Notes under the pieces: generated by a model
What the model was told of the DNA's origin: nothing
The model's input: the letters and a program-made list of their open reading frames with translations, nothing else
Database searches by the model: none
Program-made: the position numbers and the translations under genes
From: a virus
Length of the DNA stretch: 64,000 nt
Strand: one strand, 5' to 3'
Virus record (IMG/VR): IMGVR_UViG_3300031963_000020
Coordinates: 32,001 to 96,000 of that record
Part shown: in pieces, positions 4,500-46,512 of the stretch
How positions within the stretch are numbered: position 1 is the stretch's first letter
How the letters are laid out: every line of letters starts with the position of its first letter

Positions 4500-4582
4500 A
4501 AACGGTCTAAATCGTTCTAAATCATATATTTTTGATATTTAAATAGAGGGGCTAAATCGGTTATTTTTATCAGGAGAGACAA

Positions 4583-26331: not shown

Positions 26332-28149
26332 ATGGCACGAACTAGAAAAGCATTAGGAAAGCAATTTTTAAACCAGGTACCTGTCTTGATTGAAGATTCA
26401 AGTCAGGAATCTGTGTATTTTAATATAAAAAAATTAGATAGTTATTTCACTGGTGGTAAGAACGCTTTTCTTGTTACTGGAACAGGATTACTGGAACCAA
26501 ACACCACCATTCAAATTGAAATATTAGACGTTGATGGAAACAGTATTTATGTAGAAGCTATACGTAATTTTTCTGAAGCAGGGTCACGTGTGGTGGTAGT
26601 TGAAATATACGAAAACACACCACGAGGACCAGCTATTCTCACGATATTAGGAACTGCTAGACGTTTAGCAAACGGACAATCTATACCTGATATTTGGCAA
26701 GGTCGTGTTAATTTACGTTGGCAAAAGAAACTCATTGTAGAACCAAAAGCAAGAAACAACACACCAATACGAATTAAAAGACAACCTGAAATTATTACAA
26801 GTGAATTACTATTGACAGGTTCATTACTCAGTCAATCTCGTATCAATAATCCTATAGGTCAAATTACATTAACACCAAAAAATGTATTAAATAAACAACG
26901 TGGTTATATAGTAACTCTTAATAGTGGTAGTGCGTTCAAAGGATTTCATTTAACACCAAAAATAACAGGAAGTTTTAGTTTACAAGAACGTAAATATACG
27001 GGGACAATACCAGCAACAACTGAATCAATACAGATACTTTCAAACCACACAGCATCCGTAGATTTACCACTTTCTCATTTAAATGCATCACGGTCATTTA
27101 CCGATGTAAATATTACTAGCTCGACAGATAATAATATACTTAATTTTACACCAGTAAGAAATGGACAATACGAAATAGGTGAAACATTATATACAGCGTC
27201 ATCTACCACGTATATTAGAACTGCAAAATCAATCACATCCTCACTTAACTACAGTTTTATAAGTGAAAGTTCTACATTGATAACCAGTAGTATATTATCG
27301 TTTGCGAAACTTCGTATCATAAATCTAGATACAGTTAGTGGTGAAATCTTTAGAATTAAGGCGTCGGGTAAGCAAGCAGGTGCACAAACAGATTTCGGTT
27401 TCATAGCAGATACACCAACTACAGTAGGTGAACTATTAATAACCAGTTCTACAGACCAAGATGATAGAGAACAACCAATTGGTATATTTAACACTCATGC
27501 GATATTAACTGCAAGTTGGTATGCACATAATGTTACGGGGTCTGGTATACCTGATACCTCATATGGTGATGATACGTTAAATGCATCTACGCATATTAGT
27601 TTAAGTCTTGATGATAGTAATATCTTGGATGCAGGATATGCGGTCACTGCTACAAGTAGCTACTTTATAGGAACACGAGAAGAATTTGCTTTATTTCCAA
27701 CATCTGAGTATACACTAAAATTTGATAGTTATGTATATACTACATCTGGAGCATTCGCATACACAGCAAGTGCCTATAATACAGACGTATATATAACTGG
27801 TTCCGCTATCGCTGGTAATAATCTATTTGGTCAAAAAATAGGTTCAATCACCACTACGGGCAAAGCAGGATATTTCCCAAATAAACAGTTTAATTTTACA
27901 GTTCCACGTAGTGGTAGTGCTGGATTACGATTTGTAGTAAATAATGGGTTCTGGCAATTTGCAAATATTTCATTAAAGGTTGCGGAAGAGTATGCATTTA
28001 GCCCCGACGAAGTTATCGTTACGATTCCAAACGATGCGGCAAATACGTCAAGTTTGATATTTAAAACAGATTTGTTTGATATTAACAATAATGCATTAGA
28101 TTTAAATATTCAGTCAGTTCCAACTATCTTTACAGGTTCAAGACGATGA
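26332..28149 (+). CDS. Putative virion structural protein (beta-rich)
   Basis: 605-aa Ser/Thr-rich ORF preceded by the TATTTATA element. Confidence 0.55.
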   Translation: MARTRKALGKQFLNQVPVLIEDSSQESVYFNIKKLDSYFTGGKNAFLVTGTGLLEPNTTIQIEILDVDGNSIYVEAIRNFSEAGSRVVVVEIYENTPRGPAILTILGTARRLANGQSIPDIWQGRVNLRWQKKLIVEPKARNNTPIRIKRQPEIITSELLLTGSLLSQSRINNPIGQITLTPKNVLNKQRGYIVTLNSGSAFKGFHLTPKITGSFSLQERKYTGTIPATTESIQILSNHTASVDLPLSHLNASRSFTDVNITSSTDNNILNFTPVRNGQYEIGETLYTASSTTYIRTAKSITSSLNYSFISESSTLITSSILSFAKLRIINLDTVSGEIFRIKASGKQAGAQTDFGFIADTPTTVGELLITSSTDQDDREQPIGIFNTHAILTASWYAHNVTGSGIPDTSYGDDTLNASTHISLSLDDSNILDAGYAVTATSSYFIGTREEFALFPTSEYTLKFDSYVYTTSGAFAYTASAYNTDVYITGSAIAGNNLFGQKIGSITTTGKAGYFPNKQFNFTVPRSGSAGLRFVVNNGFWQFANISLKVAEEYAFSPDEVIVTIPNDAANTSSLIFKTDLFDINNNALDLNIQSVPTIFTGSRR

Positions 28150-30959
28150 ACATAAACAAATTATTTGAACAAATAGTAGCACTTGACGATTATGTTGAGC
28201 AACACAATTTCTTGGTAGAGACACTTGCACCACAACTTGTGGAAGAATTAGCTATTACAACGACTGATACATTGGAAGAAGCAAAAAAGAAGCGTAAGAA
28301 GGCAAAAGAAAAGATTAAACGATATGGATTTTTCTATCCATTATATCCTCGTGTAATTAAAACTGGTGAACAACCAAAAGAAGAACCAACAACACCACCA
28401 ACGGAACCAACCGATAGTGGTGATGCTGGAGCTGGTGATACTGGTGGTGTGGATGAAATTAAGCCACAAAATGTAGATAACGCATTTGCATTTCCTTATT
28501 CACTTGGTCCGGAGCAAGATGATGAATTCTTACAAAAAGAAGCACTATCAAGTACGGAACGGATGCGTAGGTACAACAAGCGTCACCCCGAAAAAGTTCG
28601 TCAGTACCTTAAAAAGACTCAGGATGACCGCGTTGCCCGTAACCGCGACCGTAAAAAAGCAGTAAAGAAATACGGCAAAACAAAGATGAAGAACCATGAC
28701 GTACATCATCCAAACGGACCACATAATGGTGGTGCTCGCTTGGTACGTAAAGATCATGGACGAGATAAGAAAAACGAAAATATTGAGTACGTATATCTCT
28801 CCGAGTTATTAGAAGGTAATGTACCAAATGGTCCGTGGATATTGTTATCAGAGGGTGGAGCAGCAGGACATTTAGCGCATCCATACGAAGATGATAGTTT
28901 GACGTTTAAAGATTTAAAAGAAATGGCAAAACGTGGTTTGGTCGGTGGATTAGATGCAGAAGGTCCAGTCACCGAAAAACTTGACGGACAGAACATCACC
29001 TTTAGTGTACGTGATGGTCGTGTGGTATTTGCTCGTAATAAAGGTCAAGTCAAAAATCGTGGACAGAACGCATTACCAGCAGCAGACTTACGACAAATGT
29101 TTGCTGGTCGTGGTGATATAGAAAAAGCATTTGGAAACTCAGCAGATGACTTACAAGCAGCAGTAGACGCATTACCACAAGAACAACGAGACGCGATGTT
29201 CGGTGATGGTCGTAAGTTTATGAATGTAGAAATTATATTCCCAGATACAAAAAATGTTATTCCATACGGTAAACCAGTGTTGGTATTTCATGGAACTATT
29301 GAATATGATGATGCAGGGGAAGAGATTGGTCGTAATGTAGATGATGCAAAAATTTTGGACCAACAACTTCAAGCAGTTAGTGCACAAAAACAACGCACAT
29401 TTGGCATATCAGGTCCACAACCTATTACATTTAATGATGCCGACACAGTACGCAATAAAGAACGATTACAACAATACGGTGCAGAAATTGCACGTATTCA
29501 AGAAGAATATGACCTTGATGATAATTCTACATTAGAAGATTACAAGGTGGCATGGTGGAATAGAGAAATTGATAATATGGGTATCGATTGGACTCCACAA
29601 GAACGTGAAGGTCTTATTCGTCGTTGGGCAATGGGTGAAAAGAAGTTTGGGGTCAAAGATATTGAAGATCCTGAAAAGAAAAAGGCATTTAGACAATTTG
29701 AAGTAAACGAACTTAAAGATAAACAAAAGGCTGCTACTCGTCCAATAGAACGTATTTTTTTACGTATTGGTGCAGATACGTTACTACGCGTCACTAATAC
29801 TCTTGGAGCTAATAATCCAGAGATGGCAGCACAATTAAAACAAGAAGTTAGAGATGCTATAGAAAAGATTAAAGACGCTGGTGATGAAAATCAATTGGCA
29901 ATGTTACAGCAACAAATAGAACGGTTAGATGACCTTGGTATTGAACGTGTGGTTCCAAGCGAAGGGTTGGTCTTTATCTATAATGGTAAACCATATAAAT
30001 TTACTGGAGCATTTGCACCAGTCAATCAAATCCTTGGTATGATGAAGTTTCAACGAGGTAAAGCTAAAGTTGTTGATGAACCAGAAAAGAAACCAGCAGA
30101 AGAACCACAAGTAACCACACAAACAACAACTACACCAACTGGTGAAAAACGAACCATTGCTATTTTTCCTGGTCGTTTTCAACCATTCCACGCAGGACAT
30201 TACAGTATCTATCGTGCTTTGGTCGAAAAGTTTGGTAAAGAAAATGTTTATATCGCAACCAGTGATAAGACCGACCCAACCAAATCACCATTTGGGTTTG
30301 TTGAAAAGAAAGACATTATCACAAGAATGTTTGATATTCCGGAAGATATGGTGGTACAAGTAAAAAATCCATACGCACCAGTTGAAATCACCGGTAATAT
30401 GCCAGACAATACAGTTGTGGTAACTGCAGTCAGTGAAAAAGACTCAGAACGATTAACGGGTGGTAAATACTTTACACCGTATGATGGTGAAACAGCGACA
30501 CAAGGATTTAAAGATAAAGGATATTTCATAGTTGCACCAGAAATGCAACTACAACTTCAAGGCAAAAACATTAGTGGAACTCAAGTTAGAGCATTGTTAG
30601 GTAATCCAAATATTACTGACGAAGCAAAAGAAGAAATATTCACAATGATATATGGTAAGTTCGACCCAGACATATTTAAAAAGATTGTTAAAACTACTAC
30701 GGACTCAGAAAAAGCATTGGCACTTACACAACAGCATGGTGGTAAAAAAGCTGCAAAACCACGAGTAAAAAAGAAAGCGGGAGAACCACAAAAAGGTGTG
30801 AGAAAAAAAGCAGTAAAACCAGAACCAAAAGATCCATCATTTTACAAACCTGGTGAATCGTGGGAAACTGAAACTGGAAACTTTGGTGGCAAGAATAAAA
30901 AGAATCAAGTAAGATATTTTGGTACAAAGGACCGAGCAGACAAATTCGCTAAATCATAA
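28146..30959 (+). CDS. Multidomain protein: degenerate HNH-like segment, RNA-ligase-like covalent nucleotidyltransferase and HxGH cytidylyl/adenylyltransferase
   Basis: TEKLDGQN (motif I), NVEII, LVFHG, SEGLVF...PYKF (motifs IV/V); PGRFQPFHAGH and ISGTQVR of the HIGH-superfamily fold. Confidence 0.7.
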   Translation: MNINKLFEQIVALDDYVEQHNFLVETLAPQLVEELAITTTDTLEEAKKKRKKAKEKIKRYGFFYPLYPRVIKTGEQPKEEPTTPPTEPTDSGDAGAGDTGGVDEIKPQNVDNAFAFPYSLGPEQDDEFLQKEALSSTERMRRYNKRHPEKVRQYLKKTQDDRVARNRDRKKAVKKYGKTKMKNHDVHHPNGPHNGGARLVRKDHGRDKKNENIEYVYLSELLEGNVPNGPWILLSEGGAAGHLAHPYEDDSLTFKDLKEMAKRGLVGGLDAEGPVTEKLDGQNITFSVRDGRVVFARNKGQVKNRGQNALPAADLRQMFAGRGDIEKAFGNSADDLQAAVDALPQEQRDAMFGDGRKFMNVEIIFPDTKNVIPYGKPVLVFHGTIEYDDAGEEIGRNVDDAKILDQQLQAVSAQKQRTFGISGPQPITFNDADTVRNKERLQQYGAEIARIQEEYDLDDNSTLEDYKVAWWNREIDNMGIDWTPQEREGLIRRWAMGEKKFGVKDIEDPEKKKAFRQFEVNELKDKQKAATRPIERIFLRIGADTLLRVTNTLGANNPEMAAQLKQEVRDAIEKIKDAGDENQLAMLQQQIERLDDLGIERVVPSEGLVFIYNGKPYKFTGAFAPVNQILGMMKFQRGKAKVVDEPEKKPAEEPQVTTQTTTTPTGEKRTIAIFPGRFQPFHAGHYSIYRALVEKFGKENVYIATSDKTDPTKSPFGFVEKKDIITRMFDIPEDMVVQVKNPYAPVEITGNMPDNTVVVTAVSEKDSERLTGGKYFTPYDGETATQGFKDKGYFIVAPEMQLQLQGKNISGTQVRALLGNPNITDEAKEEIFTMIYGKFDPDIFKKIVKTTTDSEKALALTQQHGGKKAAKPRVKKKAGEPQKGVRKKAVKPEPKDPSFYKPGESWETETGNFGGKNKKNQVRYFGTKDRADKFAKS

Positions 30960-32218: not shown

Positions 32219-33805
32219 ATGAACGCAACAGCACAGCAGTTACGTGAACGTATTAAAGAAGAATATAAGAAGTGTGCAATACAGCCAGATTACTTCTTAT
32301 CAAAATATTCATACATTCAACACCCGATTCGTGGTCGGGTGTTGTTTGATTTATACAAATATCAAAAAAACGCTTTATATGACTTCGAGAAAAGTGATTA
32401 TAATATCGTTCTCAAAGGCCGTCAGATTGGTATTTCTACATTGGTCGCAGGATACGCTCTGTGGTTAATGTTGTTCCATAAAGATAAGAATATCCTTGTT
32501 ATCGCAACTAAACAAGAAACCGCAAAGAACTTAGTTACCAAAGTTAAGTTCATGCATCAAAACCTCCCAACATGGTTACGTGGTGAAGTAGTCACGGATA
32601 ATAAGCTATCACTCCAATTTTCTAACGGCTCACAGATTAAAGCGGTGGCATCATCACCAGACGCAGGACGTTCTGAAGCATTGTCTCTTCTTATTCTCGA
32701 TGAAGCTGCATTCATCGATGACGCAGATATCATCTGGACGGCAGCATCATCCACATTATCAACGGGTGGTAAAGCAATATTACTTTCTACTCCAAACGGT
32801 GTGGGTAACTTCTTTCACAAGATGTGGCAACAAGCGGAGGTCAAGACCAACGGATTCAATCCTATTCTATTAGATTGGCGAGTTCATCCAGAACGTGACC
32901 AAGCATGGCGTGATAGACAAACGGAACTGATGGGTGAAATGCAAGCGTCACAAGAACACGATGCGTCATTTATCTTCTCTGGTAATACGGTGGTTCCGCC
33001 AGAAATTATTGAGTTTTACAAAGCATCGTTTGTTCAAGAACCAGTTACCAAAGGTGGGTTTGACGGAAACTTATGGGTATGGGAATATGCACAACCTGGT
33101 CGGTCATACATTGTCTGTGCTGACGTTGCTCGTGGAGATGGTGAGGACTATTCGGCATTTCACGTAATAGATGTAGAATCGTCTACCCAAGTAGCAGAAT
33201 ACAGAGGAAAGGTAGAAACTAAGCAGTTTGGTAATATGTTGGTATCTATCGCAACCGAATATAATGACGCACTACTCATCCCAGAAAATAGTAGTATAGG
33301 ATGGAACGCTGTGCAACAAATTATTGATCGTGGATATAAAAATCTCTTTTATATGTCCAAAGATTTACAATATGTTGACGTAGAACATCAAATGACAGGA
33401 CGATATAGAGCAGAGGAACGGCAAATGGTTCCTGGATTCACCACATCACAACGTACTCGTCCGTTAGTTATTGCACGATTAAAAGAATATATGTTAGAAA
33501 ATAGTTTTACTATTAGGTCAGCAAGAATGTGTGCTGAATTAGAAACATTTATTTGGAAGAATGGTAGACCAGAAGCATTATCTGGTTATAATGATGACTT
33601 GACAATGGCATTATGTATTGGTCTGTGGGTTCGTGATACTGCCCTCCGTTTGCGTCAGGAAGGTATAGAACTGACGAAGATGGCGTTAGACAAGGCCAAG
33701 TATAATGTGGTCGGTCACATCTACACAAACAGAGACAGAGCACAAAATCCATACGAGATGCAAGTTGGAACTGGAAAGGAAGATATTAGGTGGTTACTAG
33801 GATAA
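32219..33805 (+). CDS. terL: Terminase large subunit (T4 gp17-like)
   Basis: LYKYQK adenine-binding motif, Walker A KGRQIGIST, Walker B LILDEAAF, LSTPNG, nuclease motifs ADVARG...DYSA and NDDLTMA. Confidence 0.95.
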   Translation: MNATAQQLRERIKEEYKKCAIQPDYFLSKYSYIQHPIRGRVLFDLYKYQKNALYDFEKSDYNIVLKGRQIGISTLVAGYALWLMLFHKDKNILVIATKQETAKNLVTKVKFMHQNLPTWLRGEVVTDNKLSLQFSNGSQIKAVASSPDAGRSEALSLLILDEAAFIDDADIIWTAASSTLSTGGKAILLSTPNGVGNFFHKMWQQAEVKTNGFNPILLDWRVHPERDQAWRDRQTELMGEMQASQEHDASFIFSGNTVVPPEIIEFYKASFVQEPVTKGGFDGNLWVWEYAQPGRSYIVCADVARGDGEDYSAFHVIDVESSTQVAEYRGKVETKQFGNMLVSIATEYNDALLIPENSSIGWNAVQQIIDRGYKNLFYMSKDLQYVDVEHQMTGRYRAEERQMVPGFTTSQRTRPLVIARLKEYMLENSFTIRSARMCAELETFIWKNGRPEALSGYNDDLTMALCIGLWVRDTALRLRQEGIELTKMALDKAKYNVVGHIYTNRDRAQNPYEMQVGTGKEDIRWLLG

Positions 33806-33844: not shown

Positions 33845-34003
33845 ATGATTAAATTAGTTGATATTTTGTTGACAGAAAAATGGACAAACAGATACAAAAA
33901 GTCCATAAATTGTAGTAATCCAAAGGGTTTCAGCCAAAAAGCACATTGCGCTGGACGTAGAAAGCGTAAACGTGGTGGGAAAACAACATCAAAACCGGTA
34001 TAA
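33845..34003 (+). CDS. Small basic protein MIKLVDILLTEKWTNRYKKSINCSNPKGFSQKAHCAGRRKRKRGGKTTSKPV (not in the ORF track)
   Basis: 52-aa ORF translated by hand; fills the gap after terL, lies 34 nt after TATTTATA and carries the shared leader. Confidence 0.75.
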   Translation: MIKLVDILLTEKWTNRYKKSINCSNPKGFSQKAHCAGRRKRKRGGKTTSKPV

Positions 34004-34006
34004 GAT

Positions 34007-34267
34007 ATGACCAAAGATGAACTTTTAGAAATTATTCGTGAAGAATTAGAAGCGGAATTGGCAGAACGCACCGTAGCTCGCCGTGAACCACCACGTAAAA
34101 TGGATAAGTCCCAAGTCAAAAAGCGTGATGGTATTGGCAAGAAGTTGTTAAAGAACAAGCGTTCTATCCGTTATTTTAAGGATAAGTTCGGTGATGATTG
34201 GAAATCATACCTTTGGGCAGCATCAACCAACAAGGCAATAGATAGTAAGAAAAGTAAAGGTAAGTAA
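34007..34267 (+). CDS. Small protein with acidic leader and basic body
   Basis: MTKDELLEIIREELEAELAE followed by a K/R-rich domain ending YLWAASTNKA. Confidence 0.7.
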   Translation: MTKDELLEIIREELEAELAERTVARREPPRKMDKSQVKKRDGIGKKLLKNKRSIRYFKDKFGDDWKSYLWAASTNKAIDSKKSKGK

Positions 34268-34268
34268 T

Positions 34269-34754
34269 ATGGAATATAAAGAATATTACACCTACATTTT
34301 TGAGGATTGCGGTTGTCTCCACGAAGCTGATTGTGGTTGTGGAGAACAAGAAGAGGGATATCCTGGATTTGGATATAAAGAAACAGAGAGTGATTTTAAA
34401 GATCCACGATTACAAAAAGCTGAAGAGATTGTAACGTTGTTAGAAAAGAACACACCAACCAGTCCTGAAAAGTGGGCACGAGCAAAAGCAGCCGCACGTG
34501 CCAAGTTCAAAGTATATCCATCAGCATACGCTAACCTTTGGGCAGCAAAGAAGTATAAGAGTATGGGTGGTGGTTGGAGAAAAACTAAGAAAGAATATCA
34601 TATACCACACAAGCGACGTGATCCAATGGGTCAAGAGGACGCAGATGTAAATAATGATGGAAAAGTAAATTTAATAGATAAAATGTTAAAAGCAAAACGT
34701 GATTTGTATAAGAGATATTTGGTGGCACAAAAGAAGGGACAAAAATCCCTCTAA
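34269..34754 (+). CDS. Small modular protein (basic YPSAYAN domain and EF-hand-like loop)
   Basis: KFKVYPSAYANLWAAKKYKSMGGGW; DADVNNDGKVNLID. Confidence 0.7.
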   Translation: MEYKEYYTYIFEDCGCLHEADCGCGEQEEGYPGFGYKETESDFKDPRLQKAEEIVTLLEKNTPTSPEKWARAKAAARAKFKVYPSAYANLWAAKKYKSMGGGWRKTKKEYHIPHKRRDPMGQEDADVNNDGKVNLIDKMLKAKRDLYKRYLVAQKKGQKSL

Positions 34755-34772
34755 ACACTTTGGAGAAGTAAT

Positions 34773-35243
34773 ATGATTAGACTTATGGGATTGGTAGCTG
34801 GTATCAAGGGAATTGGTGATAAGCCAGTTGGAGCTGTAAAAGAAGCTCTTGACGCCGTTGGTAAAGAAGATGGTGATATCGATAATGATGGTGATAAAGA
34901 TTCATCAGACAAGTATTTAAAAGCTCGCCGTGATGCTATCGGTAAGTCAATGGAAAAAAAGGAAGAAATCGGACCTAAAGATGCAGTTGATTCTGGTGAA
35001 TATGATTACGAAGGTGACATGGCAAAGAATCAATTACAAACCATTATTAGAAATGCACAAATGTTGCATGATATGTTGGCAGACGACACCAACTTACCAG
35101 AATGGGTACAAAATAAAATTTCTTTAGCTAAGGAATATACTGAATCTGCTGCACAATATATTAGTAGTGAAAAGGACCAAAATGGTACAGCTGAAGTTCC
35201 TGGAGCAGCAGGTGCAGTTCCAGCACCATCGGGAACAATGTAA
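34773..35243 (+). CDS. Small modular protein (EF-hand-like loop and helical domain)
   Basis: ALDAVGKEDGDIDNDGDKDSSDKYLK; EGDMAKNQL...LPEWVQNKI; SD GGAG. Confidence 0.7.
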   Translation: MIRLMGLVAGIKGIGDKPVGAVKEALDAVGKEDGDIDNDGDKDSSDKYLKARRDAIGKSMEKKEEIGPKDAVDSGEYDYEGDMAKNQLQTIIRNAQMLHDMLADDTNLPEWVQNKISLAKEYTESAAQYISSEKDQNGTAEVPGAAGAVPAPSGTM

Positions 35244-35605
35244 TGGAAACTGTAGCCAAGTTTTTATCCACACTATTCAATAGTCGTGACCAAGCACATA
35301 TCTTTCATCTCCAAACATCATCGTATGCCGTTCACAAAGCATTAAACGATTATTATGATGCAGTTGTAGGGTTGGTTGATAGCTACGCAGAAACTTGCCA
35401 AGGTCGCTATGGAATTATCCGTGGTTATACTCCACAAAAACAATACTTTGAAAACGATGAAGTAATTAAGTATTTTACTGGATTATCAACCTATATTGAT
35501 AGTGTTCGTAAGGGACTACCACAAGATGGTGACCTTAATAATATTGTTGATGAAATCTCAGCGTTGGTGAATTCCACTATCTATAAGTTAAAATATTTAA
35601 AATGA
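35243..35605 (+). CDS. Ferritin/Dps-like four-helix protein
   Basis: AHIFHLQTSSYAVHKALNDYYD...DSYAE resembles the Dps H-x-x-H-W...H...D-x-x-AE ferroxidase pattern; ends IYKLKYL. Confidence 0.6.
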   Translation: METVAKFLSTLFNSRDQAHIFHLQTSSYAVHKALNDYYDAVVGLVDSYAETCQGRYGIIRGYTPQKQYFENDEVIKYFTGLSTYIDSVRKGLPQDGDLNNIVDEISALVNSTIYKLKYLK

Positions 35606-35925
35606 TTCTTTTAACTGACCTTTTAGACGAAGTTGTAACTGAACTTGACGAAAAGTATAAAACCAAAGGTAATCTTGGTAAATGGCTTCGTCAAAAATGG
35701 GTAGATATTTCTCGCAAAGATAAAAAAGGAAAACATCCACCATGCGGTGCTTCGGCTGGTAAGAAAGAGCGAAAGGGTGGTAGTGCAAAATATCCAAAGT
35801 GTCGTCCCGCTCGTTCCGCAGCAGCGATGAGTAAAGGTGAAAAACGTTCGGCTGTAGTTAGAAAGAGAAAAGCAGGAAATCCAGGTGGAAAACCAACAAT
35901 GGTTTCTACCTTTAAAAAGAAATAA
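35602..35925 (+). CDS. Small very basic protein with acidic leader
   Basis: MILLTDLLDEVVTELDE followed by LGKWLRQKWVDI...PPCG...KYPKCRP. Confidence 0.7.
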   Translation: MILLTDLLDEVVTELDEKYKTKGNLGKWLRQKWVDISRKDKKGKHPPCGASAGKKERKGGSAKYPKCRPARSAAAMSKGEKRSAVVRKRKAGNPGGKPTMVSTFKKK

Positions 35926-35947
35926 ACTCTTGACTTTGAGAGAGAAA

Positions 35948-36517
35948 ATGATTAGATTAACTGATATTCTTTGCGAAGGTTGTTGGGAAGGATATAAGCA
36001 AGTTGGTATGAAGGAAAAGAACGGTAAGATGGTTCCCAACTGCGTTCCAGTAGAAGAACTTTATCATCGTCCAGAAAGTGATGTTACATCGGATAGTGAT
36101 TTCAAGCCAGACCAAGATAATGAACGTGACCAATTCGGCTCGGAAACACACGTTTCAGGTCACGAAGATGAAATAAACGATGGTGAATACTGCACAGAAT
36201 GTCTTATTGAAGTTCTTGAAGGATTACACGAAAATCAACTCGGTGAAGCAGAATATCGTGGTCGTAAGGTTGCTCTCGGTAAGATTATGAGAGGTGATGT
36301 TAAGAAGTTTAAGGTGTTCGTCAAAGACCCAAAGAGTGGAAATATTAAGAAGGTTAATTTTGGTCATGGTGGAACTTCGGCAAAACGTCGAGGTGAAAAG
36401 ACAATGAAGATTAAAAAAAATATCCCTTCTCGTCGTAAGTCGTTCCGTGCAAGACACAATTGTGATAATCCAGGTCCAAGAACAAAAGCTCGTTACTGGG
36501 CATGTCGTACCTGGTAA
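35948..36517 (+). CDS. Small modular protein (CWEGY...PNCVP module and basic C-terminal domain)
   Basis: Start reassigned to ATG 35948 (MIRLTDILCE); C-terminal KKVNFG...RRKSFRARHNC...ARYWACRTW. Confidence 0.7.
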   Translation: MIRLTDILCEGCWEGYKQVGMKEKNGKMVPNCVPVEELYHRPESDVTSDSDFKPDQDNERDQFGSETHVSGHEDEINDGEYCTECLIEVLEGLHENQLGEAEYRGRKVALGKIMRGDVKKFKVFVKDPKSGNIKKVNFGHGGTSAKRRGEKTMKIKKNIPSRRKSFRARHNCDNPGPRTKARYWACRTW

Positions 36518-36518
36518 T

Positions 36519-36839
36519 ATGAAAAAGAAAATCTCACGGGAACAATCCGACAAGATATTAGATAAAATGGGTTATAAGTTTAATCCAACAGAATTCTTTT
36601 TAGGGATGAATGTTGAGTTGGAACACCAAGATGTGACCAACGGAAACGTGGTCAAGACTGCAAAAATCGCAGCAGCACACTTGAAAGAAAACCCGAAGTA
36701 TTATTCATTATTAATGAAGTACGTAGAAAAGAAGCATGAACAACTAGTTGGACCTGGTGGGGCAATCAACGCAGCACCAAAACCACAAGATGTTAAAAAA
36801 ATGCGAACAGCATTGGATAGGGAGAAAAAGCATGATTAA
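36519..36839 (+). CDS. Small protein with GMNVELEH...IAAAHLKE...YY motif
   Basis: Start reassigned to ATG 36519 (TAATATG junction); E-x-E-H and H-x-x-E could bind metal. Confidence 0.65.
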   Translation: MKKKISREQSDKILDKMGYKFNPTEFFLGMNVELEHQDVTNGNVVKTAKIAAAHLKENPKYYSLLMKYVEKKHEQLVGPGGAINAAPKPQDVKKMRTALDREKKHD

Positions 36840-37182
36840 GCTCACAGATTTAATCACAGAAGCAGGTAAGGAAAACCGCATCAACTCAATGCGTTTGGTC
36901 GCATTACTTGAAAAGTTAACTCCAACCCTTAAAGAAGCTCAAGAAGAAAAGTTGGCAAAACTAACCGCAGAATTACTTGCAGGAATCACCAAGGTCAATG
37001 AAATACCATACAACTACAACACAATGTCAGAATGGCATATGACCGAATTGGCAACCGTAGTAATGCCAGCTCGTGATTTACGTGAAGCATTAAATAGTCT
37101 ATTGAAGAAACCAGCTAAGGGATTAGATACACACATCGTTGAAATGGTTATCAAGTCAATAGACGAATTGTATATCTACTAA
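36832..37182 (+). CDS. Small helical protein (MIKLTDLITE leader)
   Basis: Start reassigned to ATG 36832, preceded by SD GGGAGA. Confidence 0.7.
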   Translation: MIKLTDLITEAGKENRINSMRLVALLEKLTPTLKEAQEEKLAKLTAELLAGITKVNEIPYNYNTMSEWHMTELATVVMPARDLREALNSLLKKPAKGLDTHIVEMVIKSIDELYIY

Positions 37183-37196
37183 CAAGTTGAGGGGTT

Positions 37197-39089
37197 ATGG
37201 CTGATAACAGCATATTTGGCAGACTAAAGAAATTATTTTCTACTAATACGGTAGTTCGTAATGTTGGTGGAAAAAGACTTAAAGTAGCCGACACAGATAA
37301 CATTCAATCGTTTATCAATAGACGCGGTATTGATAGATACCACCGCGTCTATTCTTCTATGACGGGTGGATATGGTTCTGCCCATGGACGATATGAAGCA
37401 GCGGCTGCGTTCCAAGGTTCCCGCTTGCAATTGTTCCGTGATTATGATATGATGGATAATGACCCCATTATTTCATCGGTGATGGACATCTATGCTGACG
37501 AATCAACCACCAAAGATGAATTTGGTAATCTCCTTACCATTCATTCGAAGAATACACAAATACAAGAAATCTTACATAACTTATTCTATGATGTATTGAA
37601 TGTGGAATTCAATATGTGGCCTTGGATTCGTAATATGGTCAAGTATGGTGATTTCTTTTTATTCCTAGACATAGACCCAGAATTTGGAATTGTAAATGTA
37701 TTACCCCTTTCTGTCTATGAAACTATTCGTATCGAAGGTCAAGACCCAGGTAATCCATTCTCAGTCAAGTTCAAGATTGAAAACGATTTCTTATCGTTAG
37801 GTAAGACTGAATTCGATAATTACGAAATAGCTCACTTCCGTCTCCTTTCGGACACCAACTTCCTTCCATATGGTAAGGCAATGGTTGAAGGTGGTCGTCG
37901 TGTGTGGAAACAACTTCAATTGATGGAAGATGCGATGTTAATTCATCGTATTATGAGAGCGGCAGATAAGCGTAAGATTTTAATTGATATCGGTAATATC
38001 CCACCAGCAGAAATCGATACGTTTATGAATCGTATTATGGATAGAATGAAGAAAACACCATTGGTAGATCCTGCAACTGGTGATTATAATCTTCGTTATA
38101 ATATGCAAAATATCACAGAAGATTTTTATCTTCCTGTTCGCGGTAAAGATTCTGGAACAGACATCCAAAACCTTCCAGGTCTACAATTTAATGCTATCGA
38201 AGATATTGAATACCTCCGTAATAAGTTAATGGCAGCATTCAAGGTACCAAAAGCATTCTTAGGATACGAAGAAGATTTAAGTGGTAAGGCAACATTGGCG
38301 GCACAAGATGTACGTTTCGCACGTACTATAGAACGTATCCAACGTATTATGGTGTCAGAACTCACCAAGATTGCAATTATCCACTTATACGTTCAAGGAT
38401 TTACTGATGAAGATTTGATAGACTTTGAATTATCGTTGACCAACCCATCAATTGTCTATGAACAAGAAAAGTTAAACTTATGGAAGGAAAAGATTGGGGT
38501 TGCAGAATCTATTATGAACAGTAAGATGTTATCACAAGAATGGATATACCATAATATTCTTGAATTATCTGATGATGAAATCGTGGAAGAACGTACTAAG
38601 ATTGCAGAAGATGTAAAACGTATGGCACAGTTAGAACAATCAGCACAACCACAACAACCAGGTGCTACAGGTGAACAACCAGCAACAGATGAAGCACCAC
38701 CAACCGAAGAAGAGGAACAACAAGTTTCTGATGTTGATAGTATTTTGGCCTCATTAGAAGATGGTGGTGAGGAAAGTGAGTTGGAAGGATACGGTGATGA
38801 AGAAGCTGAATTAGAAGAAGCTAAGATGGGCCGTCCAAAAACAGGAATGAAATTTGGTCAAGACAGTCACCCACGTGGTCGTGACCCACTCGGACACAAA
38901 GAAAATATGGGTTCGTTGACGGTCAGTAAACAACGAAATGATAAAAGAAAGTCTCCGTTGGCACTTACTAAAGAAGTTCAGGCATTAGTTGCAAACTTAA
39001 AAAAGCCAAGTAAGAAAGTCTTAATGGAAAACCAAGAACCAACTGGTTCTTTATTAGACGAAAGTAATATTTTGGACCTAGAAAACTAA
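37197..39089 (+). CDS. Portal protein (T4 gp20-like) with acidic/basic C-terminal extension
   Basis: QLQLMEDAMLIHRIMRA...IDIGNIP, EDFYLPVRG...GTDIQNLPG, IEDIEYLRNKL...KVPK motifs. Confidence 0.93.
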   Translation: MADNSIFGRLKKLFSTNTVVRNVGGKRLKVADTDNIQSFINRRGIDRYHRVYSSMTGGYGSAHGRYEAAAAFQGSRLQLFRDYDMMDNDPIISSVMDIYADESTTKDEFGNLLTIHSKNTQIQEILHNLFYDVLNVEFNMWPWIRNMVKYGDFFLFLDIDPEFGIVNVLPLSVYETIRIEGQDPGNPFSVKFKIENDFLSLGKTEFDNYEIAHFRLLSDTNFLPYGKAMVEGGRRVWKQLQLMEDAMLIHRIMRAADKRKILIDIGNIPPAEIDTFMNRIMDRMKKTPLVDPATGDYNLRYNMQNITEDFYLPVRGKDSGTDIQNLPGLQFNAIEDIEYLRNKLMAAFKVPKAFLGYEEDLSGKATLAAQDVRFARTIERIQRIMVSELTKIAIIHLYVQGFTDEDLIDFELSLTNPSIVYEQEKLNLWKEKIGVAESIMNSKMLSQEWIYHNILELSDDEIVEERTKIAEDVKRMAQLEQSAQPQQPGATGEQPATDEAPPTEEEEQQVSDVDSILASLEDGGEESELEGYGDEEAELEEAKMGRPKTGMKFGQDSHPRGRDPLGHKENMGSLTVSKQRNDKRKSPLALTKEVQALVANLKKPSKKVLMENQEPTGSLLDESNILDLEN

Positions 39090-39146
39090 AGTCTTATTAA
39101 TATTCGTTATATTTAATATATGACGGTATACTGTCACTAAAATGGG

Positions 39147-40031
39147 ATGTTTATGAAAGCAAACGTCAAGCATAACAAAATTCGGAATACGGGCATACTA
39201 TTTGAACTATTAGTCCGTAAAATAACCTCAGACGCATTGGAAAACCGTAGTAATGATACTGCGGTCAAACTAATGAAAGAGTATTTCAATTCTAAGACAG
39301 AACTTGGTAAAGAATTGATACTTTATCGTTCCTTCTTCAATGCACAACAACTCAGTGAAACTAAGGCATTTGAACTTATCAACGTATTGATATCACAACG
39401 TAAAAAGTTAAATGAAGTGGCATTAAACACACAAAAATACAAGTTAATTCGTGAAATTAAAAACAACTACGATTTAAAAGAATTTTTAAATGCCCGTATT
39501 CCGTCTTACAAAGTTTATGCTTCTGTATATAAGGTATTTGATGGTGCAGTAAACGAAATCCAAGACTTCAATGAAATTCAAGGTATGGTTGAAGCTAAGT
39601 TTACTATTGTTGAACATTTAAGTGGTAAGATTGTCAACAAGGAAATTAAGAAGGAAACTGCATTATTTGAAACCGTAAAGAACCAAGAAGAAGATTTACG
39701 TTTATTAACCTACAAGATTTTGATGGAAAAGTTCAATCAAAAGTATGTAGACCTTAGTGATAAGCAAAAAAACCTTCTCCGTGAATATATCTATAACGTA
39801 TCCAATTCAGCAGCTCTTCGAGCATATGCCGTAGATTTGGCAAAAGAATTGATTGCCGAAATAACAAAGAAGATAGCTAAAATTGATAATAAAGTGACTA
39901 CCATCAAGTTGTCAGAAGTTGTTTCACAATTGGAAAAGTTAAAGACAGTTCAAATGGTCAAGGAAAATCACATGACCGCGTTATTAATTGCCTTGGAAAT
40001 TACCAAGACACTAGACACTTTAAAGAGTTAA
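39147..40031 (+). CDS. Helical head-module protein of unknown function (start may be 39153)
   Basis: 294-aa ORF between portal and protease; KHNKIRNTGILFELL. Confidence 0.65.
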   Translation: MFMKANVKHNKIRNTGILFELLVRKITSDALENRSNDTAVKLMKEYFNSKTELGKELILYRSFFNAQQLSETKAFELINVLISQRKKLNEVALNTQKYKLIREIKNNYDLKEFLNARIPSYKVYASVYKVFDGAVNEIQDFNEIQGMVEAKFTIVEHLSGKIVNKEIKKETALFETVKNQEEDLRLLTYKILMEKFNQKYVDLSDKQKNLLREYIYNVSNSAALRAYAVDLAKELIAEITKKIAKIDNKVTTIKLSEVVSQLEKLKTVQMVKENHMTALLIALEITKTLDTLKS

Positions 40032-40034
40032 TCT

Positions 40035-40532
40035 ATGGACAAAACACAACAAATTCGTGAACGCGTCCGACAAATTATCAAGAAAAAACTTGATGAAATG
40101 ACAACGACAGCAAATGTTCCTGGATACCTAACTCCATATTCGTTTCGTGGTAATAAAGCAAAGAGTGTAGCACGTTCTAAGCATATTGCCACCGCAACCA
40201 CAGGATTTAAGTTAACTCCAAAGGGTGAAGAAGAAGCAAATCGTCCAGCCGATAAAATGGAAATTGTCACTAAGGAATTAAACGAAAACAAGTATTACGA
40301 ATATAAGAACGACACATCAAAGACACCACACAGAAAGATTGCAGAAGCTATTTCACAACTTAATAGAAATTTACAAGAAGTTGAACGTGTTATTAGAATG
40401 AATAGTCGTTTAAAGACTGAATCAGGTATCGCAAGTGAACAACTATGGAAGCGTACACAACAAGGATTATTGAAGTTGGAATCAAGACTTCTTGGACTTG
40501 CAACACGCATCCGTGAAATCCGTGGGCAATAA
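40035..40532 (+). CDS. Hypothetical head-associated protein
   Basis: IRERVRQIIKKKLDE leader, then MTTTANVPGYLTPYSF and a C-terminal coiled coil. Confidence 0.65.
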   Translation: MDKTQQIRERVRQIIKKKLDEMTTTANVPGYLTPYSFRGNKAKSVARSKHIATATTGFKLTPKGEEEANRPADKMEIVTKELNENKYYEYKNDTSKTPHRKIAEAISQLNRNLQEVERVIRMNSRLKTESGIASEQLWKRTQQGLLKLESRLLGLATRIREIRGQ

Positions 40533-40533
40533 T

Positions 40534-41121
40534 ATGCAAACATTACTCGTAGAATATAATGTCATTTCTTATGACACTACTTTATTAAAAGAAGCAGCAG
40601 ACATCAGTAAACCTTTGATGTTAAAAGATGTTTTACTTCAACGTGCAGAAATGAAGAACCAGAATGGTCGTGTATATCCAAAGGAAATCTTATCACGTGA
40701 AGCAATGGTATACAAGAATAACTTCGTATCACAACGCCGTGCACTTGGTGAACTCGACCATCCAGAAAGTCCTGTCGTCAACTTAAAAAACGTCTGTTGC
40801 AACGTCACCGAACTCTGGTTCGAAGGTGATGATGTCAAGGGCAATATCGAAATTTTATCTACCCCATCAGGCAATATCGTTCGTGAACTCATCAAGAACA
40901 ATATCCGATTGGGTGTTTCATCCCGTGGTATGGGTTCTGTCAAACCAATCGGTGAGAATACTGTAGAAGTTGGTGATGACTTCTCACTTATCTGCTTTGA
41001 TATTGTCAGTAATCCAAGTACTCACGGGGCATTTATCAACGAAAACAAGGGTGGTCAAATTATCACCCCCTATAGTCGTATTGATACATTGATATATGAC
41101 TTTTTAGGTGAACTAAAGTAA
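40534..41121 (+). CDS. Prohead maturation protease (T4 gp21-like)
   Basis: Start reassigned to 40534; NQNGRVYP, ALGELDHP, GVSSRGMGS, FDIVSNPSTHGA. Confidence 0.92.
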   Translation: MQTLLVEYNVISYDTTLLKEAADISKPLMLKDVLLQRAEMKNQNGRVYPKEILSREAMVYKNNFVSQRRALGELDHPESPVVNLKNVCCNVTELWFEGDDVKGNIEILSTPSGNIVRELIKNNIRLGVSSRGMGSVKPIGENTVEVGDDFSLICFDIVSNPSTHGAFINENKGGQIITPYSRIDTLIYDFLGELK

Positions 41122-41130
41122 GGAGTTTTT

Positions 41131-41388
41131 ATGACAACATTTTTAGTAGTAGTATTCGTATTAGCAGTTGTAATTTATTTTGTTAATCGTAAGGTAATGG
41201 AAGCCCCAGCACCTTTGTTAAAGGCAACCAAGAAGGTTGAAGCAGTTGCAGTTAAGGTTGTTGATGTCAACGGTGATGGTAAGGTTGACCTCAAAGACGC
41301 AGTTGCAGCCGTTAAGGCAGTAGAAGCAACTAGTAAAAAGGTTGTTAAGAAGGCAAAAAAGATAACAACAAAGAAAAAGACCAAATAA
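41131..41388 (+). CDS. Small membrane protein with EF-hand-like loop and Lys-rich tail
   Basis: N-terminal TM helix; DVNGDGKVDLKD; SD AAGGAG. Confidence 0.7.
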   Translation: MTTFLVVVFVLAVVIYFVNRKVMEAPAPLLKATKKVEAVAVKVVDVNGDGKVDLKDAVAAVKAVEATSKKVVKKAKKITTKKKTK

Positions 41389-41394
41389 TTTTCT

Positions 41395-41763
41395 ATGCGA
41401 CTTAAAGCTTTACTAAATGAAAATATCACAAATGAATTTGTAAAGTTTGTCGCAAAAGAGCTACAACTTCAATCACTACCTGCCAATATTAAATTTGTGG
41501 GTAGTGATTATTCTAAAGAAAATTTAACCTTTGGAACCTATAATCCACAAACTGACGAAATTATTATCGTAAAAGGTAATCGTCATATTGCGGATGTATT
41601 ACGAACCTTGGCTCACGAGATGGTGCATCACAAACAACGAACCAGTAATCAAGAGTTGAATGGTGAAGATGGGTCAAACACAGAAAACGAAGCAAATGCA
41701 AAAGCAGGTGAATTAATGCGTAAGTTTAGATACTTACGACCAGAAATGTACGTGGAGAGATAA
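41395..41763 (+). CDS. HExxH zinc metallopeptidase-like protein
   Basis: GTYNP...LRTLAHEMVHHKQ...ENEANAKAG (zincin, IrrE/ImmA-like pattern); MRLKALLNE leader. Confidence 0.7.
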   Translation: MRLKALLNENITNEFVKFVAKELQLQSLPANIKFVGSDYSKENLTFGTYNPQTDEIIIVKGNRHIADVLRTLAHEMVHHKQRTSNQELNGEDGSNTENEANAKAGELMRKFRYLRPEMYVER

Positions 41764-43651: not shown

Positions 43652-44911
43652 ATGGCAGAAATTACAAACGAACTTCTAAAGCAAGCAATTGCAGATGCAG
43701 ATGCAGTCCGTGATATGGCTATCGCAAATGCAAAGATTGCATTAGAAGAAACCTTCACACCCCAAATCAAGTCCATGCTTGCAAAGCGCTTACGTGCCGA
43801 AGCAATGGAAACAGCAGAAGGTGCGGAAAAGGCAAAGGAAGAACCATTCCAAGACGCAACACACGTAACAGGTGGTGGTCCAGAAGATACTTCCGCAATC
43901 GGAACTGGTGACAACAAGGAACCATCCGATGCAGCAAACTACTCATCGGATATTGATCAAGGCGGTGAAGGTGAAACCGACTCATCAACCGATTGGTATG
44001 ATGATTGGTCAGAATCAGATTTTGACCTTGACGAAGTAATCAAGGAATTAGAAGGAGATGTAAACGCACTTTCAGAAGCTGAAGAAGAAGAACTCGACGA
44101 AGCTAAGCATGAAGGTGAAGAAGAGAAGGAAGAAATGAAGGAAGGTTATAATGAAGAAATGCATGATGATGAAGAAAAGGAAGAGGAAGAGGAAAAGGCA
44201 GACGAAGCAGCTAAGGTTGTAGACCCAACCGCAGATGCAGGCACCCCACCAGAAGCAGCTAAGAAACATTCAGATGCAATGCAAAAGAAGGGTGATGACA
44301 AGCCATCCGCTCCAGCAGTAAATCCTATGGGTAAGGCAGAAGGTGCAGAAGATGCATCAGACCCACATAAGTTCGCAATGAACCCAGCAGAACCAAAGAT
44401 GGAAATGGGTTATGGCGCAGGTGAAGGTGAAGGCGAAGAAGAACTCGATCTTGAAGCAATCCTTCGTGAATTAGAAGCCCAAGATGCTAAGGACACAGAA
44501 CAAAAGCATCAAATGGCATCTAAGATGGCAGATCTTCAAAAAGAGCTAGCAGAATATCGTAAGGTTGTAGAAGTCCTACGAGGCAAGCTTAACGAAGTAA
44601 ATCTTCTAAACGCAAAACTCCTTTATACCAACAAGATCTTCCGTAAGGAAGGTTTGACCAACGAACAAAAGGTTGCAATCCTCGAATCATTCGACAGAGC
44701 AATCAATGTACGTGAAGTCAAGATGGTATATGCAACATTAGCAGAAGCAATGACTGTAACTGCTAAGAATGCAAAGGGACGCACCGTATCAAGTAAGGTT
44801 GTTACCGAAGGTTTGGCATCAAAGCCAACCCCAAGTACAGCACCAAAGAAGGAAATTTTAGAAGAAAATACAGTCGCAAAGCGTCTACAACAACTCGCAG
44901 GCATTCTATAA
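43652..44911 (+). CDS. Prohead scaffold/core protein (T4 gp22-like)
   Basis: Start reassigned to 43652 (SD GAGG); very acidic and coiled-coil; directly upstream of MCP; many L/I/V-x-E sites; ends RLQQLAGIL. Confidence 0.75.
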   Translation: MAEITNELLKQAIADADAVRDMAIANAKIALEETFTPQIKSMLAKRLRAEAMETAEGAEKAKEEPFQDATHVTGGGPEDTSAIGTGDNKEPSDAANYSSDIDQGGEGETDSSTDWYDDWSESDFDLDEVIKELEGDVNALSEAEEEELDEAKHEGEEEKEEMKEGYNEEMHDDEEKEEEEEKADEAAKVVDPTADAGTPPEAAKKHSDAMQKKGDDKPSAPAVNPMGKAEGAEDASDPHKFAMNPAEPKMEMGYGAGEGEGEEELDLEAILRELEAQDAKDTEQKHQMASKMADLQKELAEYRKVVEVLRGKLNEVNLLNAKLLYTNKIFRKEGLTNEQKVAILESFDRAINVREVKMVYATLAEAMTVTAKNAKGRTVSSKVVTEGLASKPTPSTAPKKEILEENTVAKRLQQLAGIL

Positions 44912-44931: not shown

Positions 44932-46512
44932 ATGTCAGGTGTATCAGAATTTATCAACGAAGCCGGTTCAGCACACCGCGTAGTAGTTGAACAAACCCGC
45001 CAATTGGCAGGTAAGTGGGAAAAGTCAGGCCTTCTTGAAGGCTTAACTGGTCACGAAAAGCAAGGTATGGCAGTAATGCTTGAAAACCAAGCAACACAAC
45101 TTCTTTCAGAAGCAACAACCACCAACCCAGCAGGTGCAGGTTCAGCTGGTGAAAACTGGGCAGGTGTCGCACTTCCATTAGTACGTAAGGTATTCGGTTC
45201 AATCGCAAGTAAGAACTTCGTATCAGTACAACCAATGAACTTACCAGCAGGTTTGGTATTCTTCATGGATTTCAAGTATGCAAACACAGTAAACGGTAAG
45301 ACCGCAGGTGGTTCACTCTATGGTACAACCAGTGGTTCAGGTGTTCTTCCACGTGGTGGTTTCTACGGTGCTGGTGAATACGCATACTCAGTAAATGATG
45401 CAACATTAACACTTGCACCAGCAATTGGTTCAGGTTCAGCAGTTGGTTATGGTGATGTAAACTACAACGATACATACTCATCATCATTTGCATCATTCTT
45501 CAAGTTCGTTGTTCCAGCAGTAAGTTTCTCAAACGCTGACTTCAACGCAGTTCGTTCATTCCGCGTAACAACAAACGTTGCAGGTGGTGCACTTCTTCCA
45601 GAATTCACCAAGTATGACGGAACAAACGTTACACTTATCGTAAGTGGAACATCAGCTCTTGGTTCAATGGTATCAATGTCAGCAGTTGAATACAATAAGC
45701 AACCAACAGACACCACCCGTGGTGACTTCGAAGATCGTGATAACTCAGTAACAAACTTGAACATTCCACAAATTGATTTGGAACTTCGTTCAGAAACAAT
45801 CGTAGCAAAGACCCGTAAGTTGAAGGCAGTCTGGTCACCAGAACTTGCACAAGACTTGAACGCATACCACTCAGTTGATGCAGAAGCAGAATTAACAGCA
45901 ATGTTAAGTGACTACATCTCAACTGAAATCGACCTTGAAATTCTTGATATGTTGATTGCAAACGCAACCACAACAGAATTCTGGAATGCAGAAGTTGGTA
46001 AGGTATGGAACGGTTCAGCATTCGTAGCAAGTGCAACGCTCAGTGGTCAAGCTTGGACATCAATGACTTGGTTCCAAACACTTGGTCAAAAGATGCAAAA
46101 GGTATCAAACAAGATTCACCAACTCACAATGCGTGGTGGTGCAAACTTTGCAGTATGTTCACCAACCGTTGCAACAATCTTGGAAACAATCCCAGGATTT
46201 ATGGCAGCAACAGACGGTGATAAGATGGAATTTGCAGGTGGCGTAACAAAGGTTGGTTCATTCCAAAACCGTTACACAATCTACAAGAACCCATATATGA
46301 CCGAAAACACATTGTTAATGGGCTTCCGTGGAAGTAACTTCCTCGAAACTGGTGCAGTCTACGCACCATATATCCCACTTATCATGACTCCATTGGTATA
46401 CGATCCAAACAACTTCACACCACGTAGAGGCGTAATGACCCGCTACGCGAAGAAGATCGTACGTCCAGAATTCTTCGGTAAGATCTTCATCGATGGATTA
46501 GCAACTGTCTAA
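44932..46512 (+). CDS. Major capsid protein (T4 gp23-like)
   Basis: KW...LLEG...AVMLENQ, VSVQPMNLPAGLVF, AKTRKLKAVWSPELAQDLNAYH, YAPYIPL...F.PRRGVMTRY. Confidence 0.95.
   Translation: MSGVSEFINEAGSAHRVVVEQTRQLAGKWEKSGLLEGLTGHEKQGMAVMLENQATQLLSEATTTNPAGAGSAGENWAGVALPLVRKVFGSIASKNFVSVQPMNLPAGLVFFMDFKYANTVNGKTAGGSLYGTTSGSGVLPRGGFYGAGEYAYSVNDATLTLAPAIGSGSAVGYGDVNYNDTYSSSFASFFKFVVPAVSFSNADFNAVRSFRVTTNVAGGALLPEFTKYDGTNVTLIVSGTSALGSMVSMSAVEYNKQPTDTTRGDFEDRDNSVTNLNIPQIDLELRSETIVAKTRKLKAVWSPELAQDLNAYHSVDAEAELTAMLSDYISTEIDLEILDMLIANATTTEFWNAEVGKVWNGSAFVASATLSGQAWTSMTWFQTLGQKMQKVSNKIHQLTMRGGANFAVCSPTVATILETIPGFMAATDGDKMEFAGGVTKVGSFQNRYTIYKNPYMTENTLLMGFRGSNFLETGAVYAPYIPLIMTPLVYDPNNFTPRRGVMTRYAKKIVRPEFFGKIFIDGLATV

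Follow-up and report, generated by a model that had tools for sequence, protein, structure and literature searches.

A decapeptide leader shared by unrelated head-module proteins of a distant T4-like phage, a probable capsid-targeting propeptide

Four otherwise unrelated small proteins of an uncultured T4-like phage begin with closely similar peptides of 10-11 residues that run directly from the start Met, and this shared N-terminal leader is the subject of the present analysis. The genes lie in a window of 64,000 nucleotides, which corresponds to bases 32001-96000 of one 148,340-bp viral contig (IMG/VR record IMGVR_UViG_3300031963_000020); coordinates refer to the window unless stated otherwise, and genes and their products are named by their first position. 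The contig is classed as linear in IMG/VR, has a CheckV completeness estimate of 72% and a G+C content of 37%, and carries nearly all of its genes on the plus strand; 173 proteins are predicted for the full genome. As judged from sequence comparison, the leader is probably a T4-type capsid-targeting propeptide, carried by mostly very basic head cargo and clipped off by the prohead protease.

The shared leader and the T4-like head module

A previous, sequence-only reading of this DNA had drawn attention to eight similar N-terminal peptides and had interpreted them as a signal for loading proteins into the head. All eight are genuine ATG-initiated starts of open reading frames (ORFs), and four of them form a tight set (lengths in amino acids, aa; pI, isoelectric point):

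33845..34003, plus strand: 52-aa protein; leader MIKLVDILLTE, then a 41-aa, very basic Cys-pair module (pI 11.5)
35602..35925, plus strand: 107-aa protein; leader MILLTDLLDE, invariant L-D-E, basic mature part (pI 10.7)
35948..36517, plus strand: 189-aa protein; leader MIRLTDILCE; mature part with CWEGY...VPNC module, acidic linker and basic C-terminal module
36832..37182, plus strand: 116-aa protein, modelled as a helical bundle; leader MIKLTDLITE; matches no known family

The consensus of the four leaders is M-I-(K/R/L)-L-x-D-(L/I)-(L/I)-x(1-2)-E, in which L4, L/I7 and L/I8 are found in all four and in relatives of the phage. Their ends (L-T-E, L-D-E, L-C-E and I-T-E) correspond to the (L/I)-x-Glu cleavage motif of gp21, with Glu at P1. 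In the 35948 protein, an invariant L-x-E also precedes the basic C-terminal module. By BLAST, the mature parts are unrelated and form separate clusters, and the claim that similar peptides open unrelated ORFs next to the large terminase (terL) and portal genes is thus borne out for these four members.

Several comparisons set the four leaders apart from all other N-termini of the genome. When residues 2-11 of the 173 proteins were compared all-against-all in an unsupervised manner, the four emerged as a clique, all six pairs scoring 20-29 with BLOSUM62, and only one true paralogue family scored higher. A regular expression describing the leader matches 4 of the 173 N-termini, compared to an average of 0.009 matches among shuffled N-termini, and matches neither at any of 794 internal Met positions nor anywhere internally in 46,940 residues. 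Among the 2,749 open ATG contexts of both strands, four match, and these are exactly the four genes. Additionally, a position matrix made only from the leaders of relatives, for which scores of at least 5 bits are expected by chance 0.06 times, assigns 31.3, 26.2, 24.3 and 16.7 bits to the four leaders and 3.6 bits to the next-best N-terminus. A comparison with shuffled and other ORFs and a survey of N-termini across the genome and its relatives had been proposed together with the sequence-only reading, and both turned out in favour of a shared leader, the pattern also being kept in orthologues. At the DNA level, the regions upstream of the leader ORFs are dissimilar among each other and the leaders use different synonymous codons (TTA/CTC, ACT/ACA, GAT/GAC, AAA/AGA/AAG); therefore, the shared feature is the peptide, and selection acts on the peptide and not on the DNA. 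The presence of a shared N-terminal leader on unrelated proteins is confirmed.

The four genes belong to a cassette of nine small genes (33845-37182) between terL and the portal gene, within a T4-like head module:

32219..33805, plus strand: large terminase (terL); Pfam Terminase_6N, 2.3e-12; upstream border of the cassette
37197..39089, plus strand: gp20-type portal; Pfam Portal_T4, 5.4e-65; downstream border of the cassette
40534..41121, plus strand: gp21-type prohead protease; Pfam Peptidase_S77 (PF03420), 8e-27; N-terminus MQTLLVE
43652..44911, plus strand: presumed scaffold in the gp22 position; acidic, rich in (L/I)-x-E; adjoins the gene of the major capsid protein (MCP)
44932..46512, plus strand: gp23-type MCP; Pfam Gp23, 1.4e-72

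A gp21-type protease that could act on the ends of the leaders, as the sequence-only reading had supposed, is indeed encoded. Its match to PF03420 reaches 94.4 bits against a cut-off of 27, it aligns with T4 gp21 (PDB 5JBL, 1.2e-14), and its His76 (GELDH76P) and Ser129 (GVS129SRG) align with H85 and S140 of T4; with catalytic His and Ser kept, the S77 enzyme is apparently active. The N-termini of the protease itself (MQTLLVE) and of the MCP (MSGVSEFINE, followed by a conserved AGSAH and kept in relatives) likewise end in hydrophobic-x-Glu. More generally, N-termini in which two hydrophobic residues are followed by x(1-2)-Glu ending at residues 7-13 are found on 9 of 25 head-module proteins versus 6 of 138 proteins elsewhere (p = 3e-5). 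The 43652 protein is presumed to be the scaffold because of its position beside the MCP gene and its composition, family searches in Pfam and PHROG having returned no match. It contains 12 (L/I)-x-E sites where 6.9 are expected, and the motif reaches about twice its expected frequency in this protein and in those encoded at 39147 and 40035. By portal identity, Microcystis phage Mel-JY01 (49%) and Flavobacterium phage immuto (45%) are the nearest isolates, and T-even-type portals lie at about 25%.

Conservation, gain and loss of the leader among relatives

Relatives of the phage were represented by 80 IMG/VR loci from a portal-based scan, with 68-96% portal identity and 1,294 ORFs. The strict leader motif opens 87 of these ORFs, and most seemingly internal matches are an artefact of naive start-codon choice. 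Under a slightly looser definition, the leader is present on six families and two singletons, which amounts to six to eight unrelated families. The six are the families of 36832, 35602, 33845 and 35948, a DUF5661 variant and the family of a fifth leader-bearing protein of the window:

41395..41763, plus strand: 122-aa protein; nine-residue leader form MRLKALLNE; HExxH motif (HEMVHH)

Two of these families show opposite distributions of constraint. In the 36832 family (alignment A1, 26 sequences), overall identity falls to 28%, with M1 and E10 invariant and L4 kept in at least 90% of the sequences. Pairwise identity averages 0.62 for the leader and 0.44 for the mature part, where no window of ten residues exceeds 0.60, and no other stretch of this length is as well conserved in the family as the leader. 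The reverse is seen in the 35602 family (alignment A3), whose mature part is about 90% conserved while the leader drifts in sequence and keeps its pattern (MILLTDLLDE, MKLQDILVE, MTRFADILVE), with an invariant L-D-E before the basic part. The leader can also come and go. Orthologues of 33845 retain it, and distant orthologues of 35948 carry a short form, M-E-N-(I/L)-x-E. Homologues with DUF5661 possess it in some relatives (MILLRDLLTE) and are leaderless in the window; for 41395, some orthologues begin with MKLMDLLYE or MLLKTLLTE and others lack a leader altogether. With its presence varying within one and the same domain family, and with unrelated folds among its carriers, the leader behaves like an address label.

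The 41395 peptide had been counted as a member in the sequence-only reading, and this assignment stands with a reservation: the peptide misses the strict motif, and the start of its orthologues supports its inclusion. The protein matches Peptidase_M78 and a PHROG annotated as minor head protein/DNA pilot, both weakly, and its HEMVHH sequence suggests a small zinc metallopeptidase. The same reading had envisaged a leader that loads many different small proteins and enzymes. Unrelated proteins are tagged, but they number only five in the genome, and one of them, the HExxH-containing 41395, is enzyme-like.

In the 31 relatives whose loci include both terL and the portal gene, the two are separated by 2.9-6.3 kb with 5-13 genes in rearranged order, of which 1-4 bear the leader. 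In immuto and Mel-JY01, terL directly adjoins the portal gene, and the nine-gene cassette is therefore a lineage-specific insertion. Upstream of terL, immuto encodes ORFs (L001:641-955, 1568-2326, 2386-4911 and 6011-7311) with leader-like N-termini, namely MRLLELLRE, MKKSQLRQIIKE, MKKLIRIVE and M..NF(N/D)L(R/K)(S/K)FL(T/V)E.

Other N-termini, neighbouring genes and the basic Cys-pair module

Further proteins of the cassette, and one encoded upstream of terL, have conserved N-termini of other kinds:

34007..34267, plus strand: 86-aa basic protein; second conserved N-terminal type, MTKDELLEIIRE
34269..34754, plus strand: 161-aa protein; third N-terminal type, MEYKEYYTYIFE
34773..35243, plus strand: 156-aa acidic protein; starts MIRLMGLV, without Asp6 and Glu10; PHROG module matches
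28146..30959, plus strand: 937-aa nucleotidyltransferase-containing protein; conserved N-terminal ...(K/N)LFE; phrog_395 cytidyltransferase match

Across relatives, the N-terminus of the 34007 protein follows M-x-K-x-E-(L/I)-x-x-(I/M)-(I/V)-x-E, and that of the 34269 protein reads MKYRDFFPE or MKYKEFYE, which resembles, by eye only, MKTYQEFIAE of the T4 internal proteins IPII and IPIII. The start of the 34773 protein had been listed as a loose member of the leader set. Only MIRLMGLV is loosely similar, Asp6 and Glu10 are lacking, the first hydrophobic-x-Glu is located at residues 22-24, relatives conserve MIR(L/M)MGLV only, and its status as a leader variant is doubtful. Two more distant peptides of the sequence-only reading do not belong to the set. 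The conserved ...(K/N)LFE end of 28146 (MNINKLFE) is of another type and possibly represents a different propeptide. The protein at 21333 (MSKLVELLE) was rejected as a leader protein, as its orthologues, which begin with MSKLVELLQN, MSKLLNLFNG or MSKLVELLQD, do not retain the Glu. Outside the window, three full-length paralogues (genome positions 22832-23524, 23544-24179 and 146050-146766) share the N-terminus M(K/R)(V/Y)(A/C)VFS(T/S)(P/Y)RT, which is unrelated to the leader.

Family and structure searches offer few assignments for the mature leader proteins. The 35602 protein matches phrog_23735 and, weakly, DUF5872. For the 36832 protein, an AlphaFold2 (AF2) model shows a helical bundle with a predicted local distance difference test (pLDDT) value of 85.9 overall and only 51 for residues 1-10. 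A Foldseek search with this model gave only weak matches to four-helix bundles (Xcc0516, Avd and the S23p family; E about 0.2, template modelling score about 0.6), and no function is assigned to the protein because of the weakness of these matches. The AF2 model of the 35948 protein has a mean pLDDT of 45.7 and is too poor for use, and an ESM Atlas search with this protein returned unnamed viral clusters only.

Additional features of the region can be noted. Calcium-binding-type DxDxDG motifs (EF-hand/dockerin-like; weak Pfam matches to Dockerin_1 and EF-hand_1) are present in the proteins encoded at 34269-34754, 34773-35243 and 41131-41388, and these three are composed of short modules that PHROGs finds within larger phage proteins (phrog_4359, 38880 and 3326). 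The cassette protein at 35243-35605 (plus strand; DUF5856 / phrog_858, 'starvation-inducible regulator', Dps-like) has no leader. Between the protease and scaffold genes, a 72-aa homologue of ribosomal protein S21 is encoded at 43304-43522 (plus strand; phrog_21469, 4e-9), and Mel-JY01 has an annotated RpsU at the equivalent position. The C-terminal end of the 43652 scaffold (...RLQQLAGII) shares a 'QxLAGII' motif with an immuto ORF (L001:55-519) that starts with MKKQILSEQFRRMQKLAGIITE. A TATAAT(A/G) element is located 11-43 nt upstream of the structural genes 13869, 19197, 43652 and 49135 and also of 70646 and 71429, the latter two being window-relative coordinates past the window end; the same element occurs 30 nt before the first cassette gene, 33845. 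It may be a late promoter and would then hint at late expression.

The 41-aa basic Cys-pair module of the 33845 protein occurs alone, in tandem or within more than 2,000 larger proteins. There are 239 homologues of similar length, and in those listed, every variable N-terminal peptide ends in hydrophobic-x-Glu just ahead of the module; one variant, MQTFKEFLSE, looks like a T4 leader. Among the 2,035 longer homologues are proteins of 440-1,475 aa with nucleotidyltransferase (PF01909, PF01467), ParB (PF02195) or DUF5661 domains. In the 120 longer homologues listed, all 121 module occurrences, 53 of them internal, agree in the residues ahead of the Trp, with Glu at the second and I, L, V or M at the fourth position in front of it. 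A marine T4-like contig (L085:1373-6129) has neighbouring small ORFs with another leader, MK(I/V)xEV(V/I)xE, on homologues of the 33845 and 35948 (CW-x-GY) modules as well as on unrelated small proteins. These ORFs adjoin genes for DsbA, AhpC, IMPDH and DNA polymerase B of a T4-like phage. The marine contig provides a second, independent example of this arrangement.

Interpretation, alternatives and comparison with known systems

For the capsid-targeting propeptide, the following course of events is proposed. The cassette genes and 41395 would be expressed along with the head genes. The amphipathic leader would bind the prohead scaffolding core through hydrophobic residues 4 and 7 and thereby carry its protein into the assembling head. 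The gp21-type S77 protease would then cut after Glu, reading hydrophobic residue 8 and Glu10. The mature, mostly very basic proteins would be freed inside the capsid, remain with the DNA there and probably accompany it into the host. Core binding, cleavage, virion residence and ejection of the leader proteins can only be inferred, and the earlier capsid-targeting interpretation is partly supported.

Several observations weigh against this interpretation. The proposed cut site of the 36832 protein lies within a helix (residues 4-15) of the AF2 model. The mature proteins match no known internal or virion protein family in Pfam and PHROG, only DUFs and modules of unknown function, and the motif definitions for the enrichment tests were picked post hoc, the data having already been seen. 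Moreover, hydrophobic-x-Glu precedes the Cys-pair module invariably even deep inside large proteins, so that the Glu could belong to the fold of the module. On sequence grounds, protease-delimited modules and a Glu that is part of the fold fit equally well. A radical SAM gene is also encoded in the same genome (G000 106571).

The leader could merely be a protease-removed propeptide or a structural element of head-core proteins, such as scaffold accessories or DNA-condensing peptides, and then neither a cargo address nor injected effectors would be involved. The location of the leader genes inside the head module, the enrichment of (L/I)-x-E in proteins at core positions, the very basic mature parts, which would suit DNA condensation, and the retention of the cassette, in rearranged form, in 31 of 31 relatives with both terL and portal genes are all in line with this. 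It is nevertheless considered unlikely, as the leader is variably present within single domain families and is attached to unrelated folds; furthermore, immuto and Mel-JY01 build heads without the terL-portal cassette, which is therefore not core assembly machinery. An uncleaved N-terminal helix with a non-capsid role, be it oligomerisation or a common host target, would agree with the helix modelled over residues 4-15 of the 36832 protein, and selection on early codons for translation would agree with the frequency of A+T-rich Lys, Ile and Leu codons after ATG at 37% G+C. With the terminal Glu invariant, occurrences confined to the head module, the motif absent from the other 169 N-termini, and synonymous codons free to vary under a constraint that falls on the residue pattern, this pair of explanations appears quite improbable.

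It is very improbable that the leader serves as a recognition tag for another partner, such as a chaperone, an export system or a radical SAM/SPASM enzyme in the style of ribosomally synthesized and post-translationally modified peptides. The radical SAM gene mentioned above and the conserved Cys pairs of two cargo modules would fit such an enzyme; however, the gene is located about 37 kb away among fibre genes, and of five records of relatives with leaders and sufficient downstream sequence, two (91 and 99 kb; both fragments) have no match to Radical_SAM. The end of the leader fits the specificity of gp21 and the T4 rule for positions 4, 7, 8 and 10, and the leader does not have the basic-then-hydrophobic build of Sec or Tat signals. 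Finally, for chance or the recent duplication of a 5' gene segment, nothing speaks apart from the short length of the motif, and the probability is negligible: four matches are observed where shuffling predicts 0.009, neither the upstream DNA nor the synonymous sites are similar, and the pattern is held across relatives down to about 70% portal identity. Chance and a DNA-level origin, whether by duplication or as a regulatory cassette, were excluded by the shuffling and by the lack of similarity upstream and at synonymous sites.

The decapeptide might tentatively be viewed as the N-terminal face of a wider modular grammar of head cargo in aquatic T4-like phages, although this extension is more doubtful than established. 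Such a grammar would combine lineage-specific leaders (MIKLxDLLxE, MK(I/V)xEV(V/I)xE, MQTFKEFLSE) with hydrophobic-x-Glu before basic Cys-pair modules, and the protease would act as a polyprotein processor that frees shuffled DNA-associated peptides and effectors in the capsid. If the capsid-targeting reading is correct, the T4 rule of an address label plus a clip (positions 4, 7, 8 and 10) would be ancient, extending from T-even phages to distant freshwater and marine T4-like lineages, and sequence alone could allow packaged, injected proteins to be predicted for thousands of phages that have not been cultured. The proteins that bear the leader are candidate DNA-condensing peptides, anti-defence factors or host-takeover effectors, and the leader could become a packaging tag in the engineering of non-model phages.

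The closest known parallel is the capsid-targeting sequence (CTS) of T4. The first ten residues of IPIII suffice for head incorporation, with residues 4 and 7 serving targeting and residues 8 and 10 processing (PMC9026906), and gp21 removes exactly 10 N-terminal residues of gp24 and 9 of itself (PMC9958956). The layout of the leader, M-x-x-hydrophobic-x-(D/E)-hydrophobic-hydrophobic-x-E, is that of T4 IPII/IPIII (MKTYQEFIAE), gp24 (MAKINELLRE) and Alt (MELITELFDE), the T4 genome (NC_000866) also encoding IPI with MKTFKEF... and gp21 with MNEPQLLIE. The leader had been described as the phage's own; in its architecture (hydrophobic 4, 7 and 8; acidic 6; Glu 10), it is that of T4. As in IPII and IPIII, and also IPI, a 10-residue N-terminal peptide is placed on unrelated, mostly basic small proteins, positions 4, 7 and 8 being hydrophobic or aromatic, position 6 acidic and position 10 Glu, and a gp21-type S77 protease is encoded. 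The mature parts of 33845, 35602 and 35948 have pI values of 11.5, 10.7 and 9.1, compared to 9.6-9.7 for IPII and IPIII. Differences are also evident: Leu/Ile replaces Tyr/Phe and Asp6 replaces Glu6 in the leader, Pfam and PHROG reveal no homology of the mature proteins to IPI-III, and the T4 genes for internal proteins are scattered among early genes, whereas those of the phage are located in the terL-portal cassette. The cargo proteins would thus work like T4 internal proteins without being their homologues.

Nearest in sequence to MIKLTDLLxE are the propeptides of gp24 and Alt (Ile/Leu4, Glu6, Leu7, Leu/Phe8, Glu10); however, the former belongs to a vertex protein of the shell and the latter to an enzyme of 682 aa, whereas the tag described here is found on proteins of 52-189 aa without a known family. 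In phiKZ-like and SPN3US-like jumbo phages, whose ejection and inner-body proteins are propeptide-tagged, a gp21-related protease also cuts many head-internal proteins after Glu (PMC9026906). Their sites are short motifs, often internal and multiple, and a shared N-terminal decapeptide has not been reported. The internal proteins of T-even phages are diverse, with the CTS as their only common part (PMC3012670), and their polymorphic loci likewise combine one conserved leader with cargo genes that vary between related phages (PMC3012670, PMC9026906). Such loci have been described only in close enterobacterial relatives of T4, whereas the present phage belongs to a distant freshwater metagenome lineage, and no paper was found on capsid-targeting leaders in cyanophages, pelagiphages or other distant T4-like phages. 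The concept of a capsid-targeting leader is established for T4, and the leader described here would represent a propeptide of the T4 CTS type in a distant, uncultured lineage.

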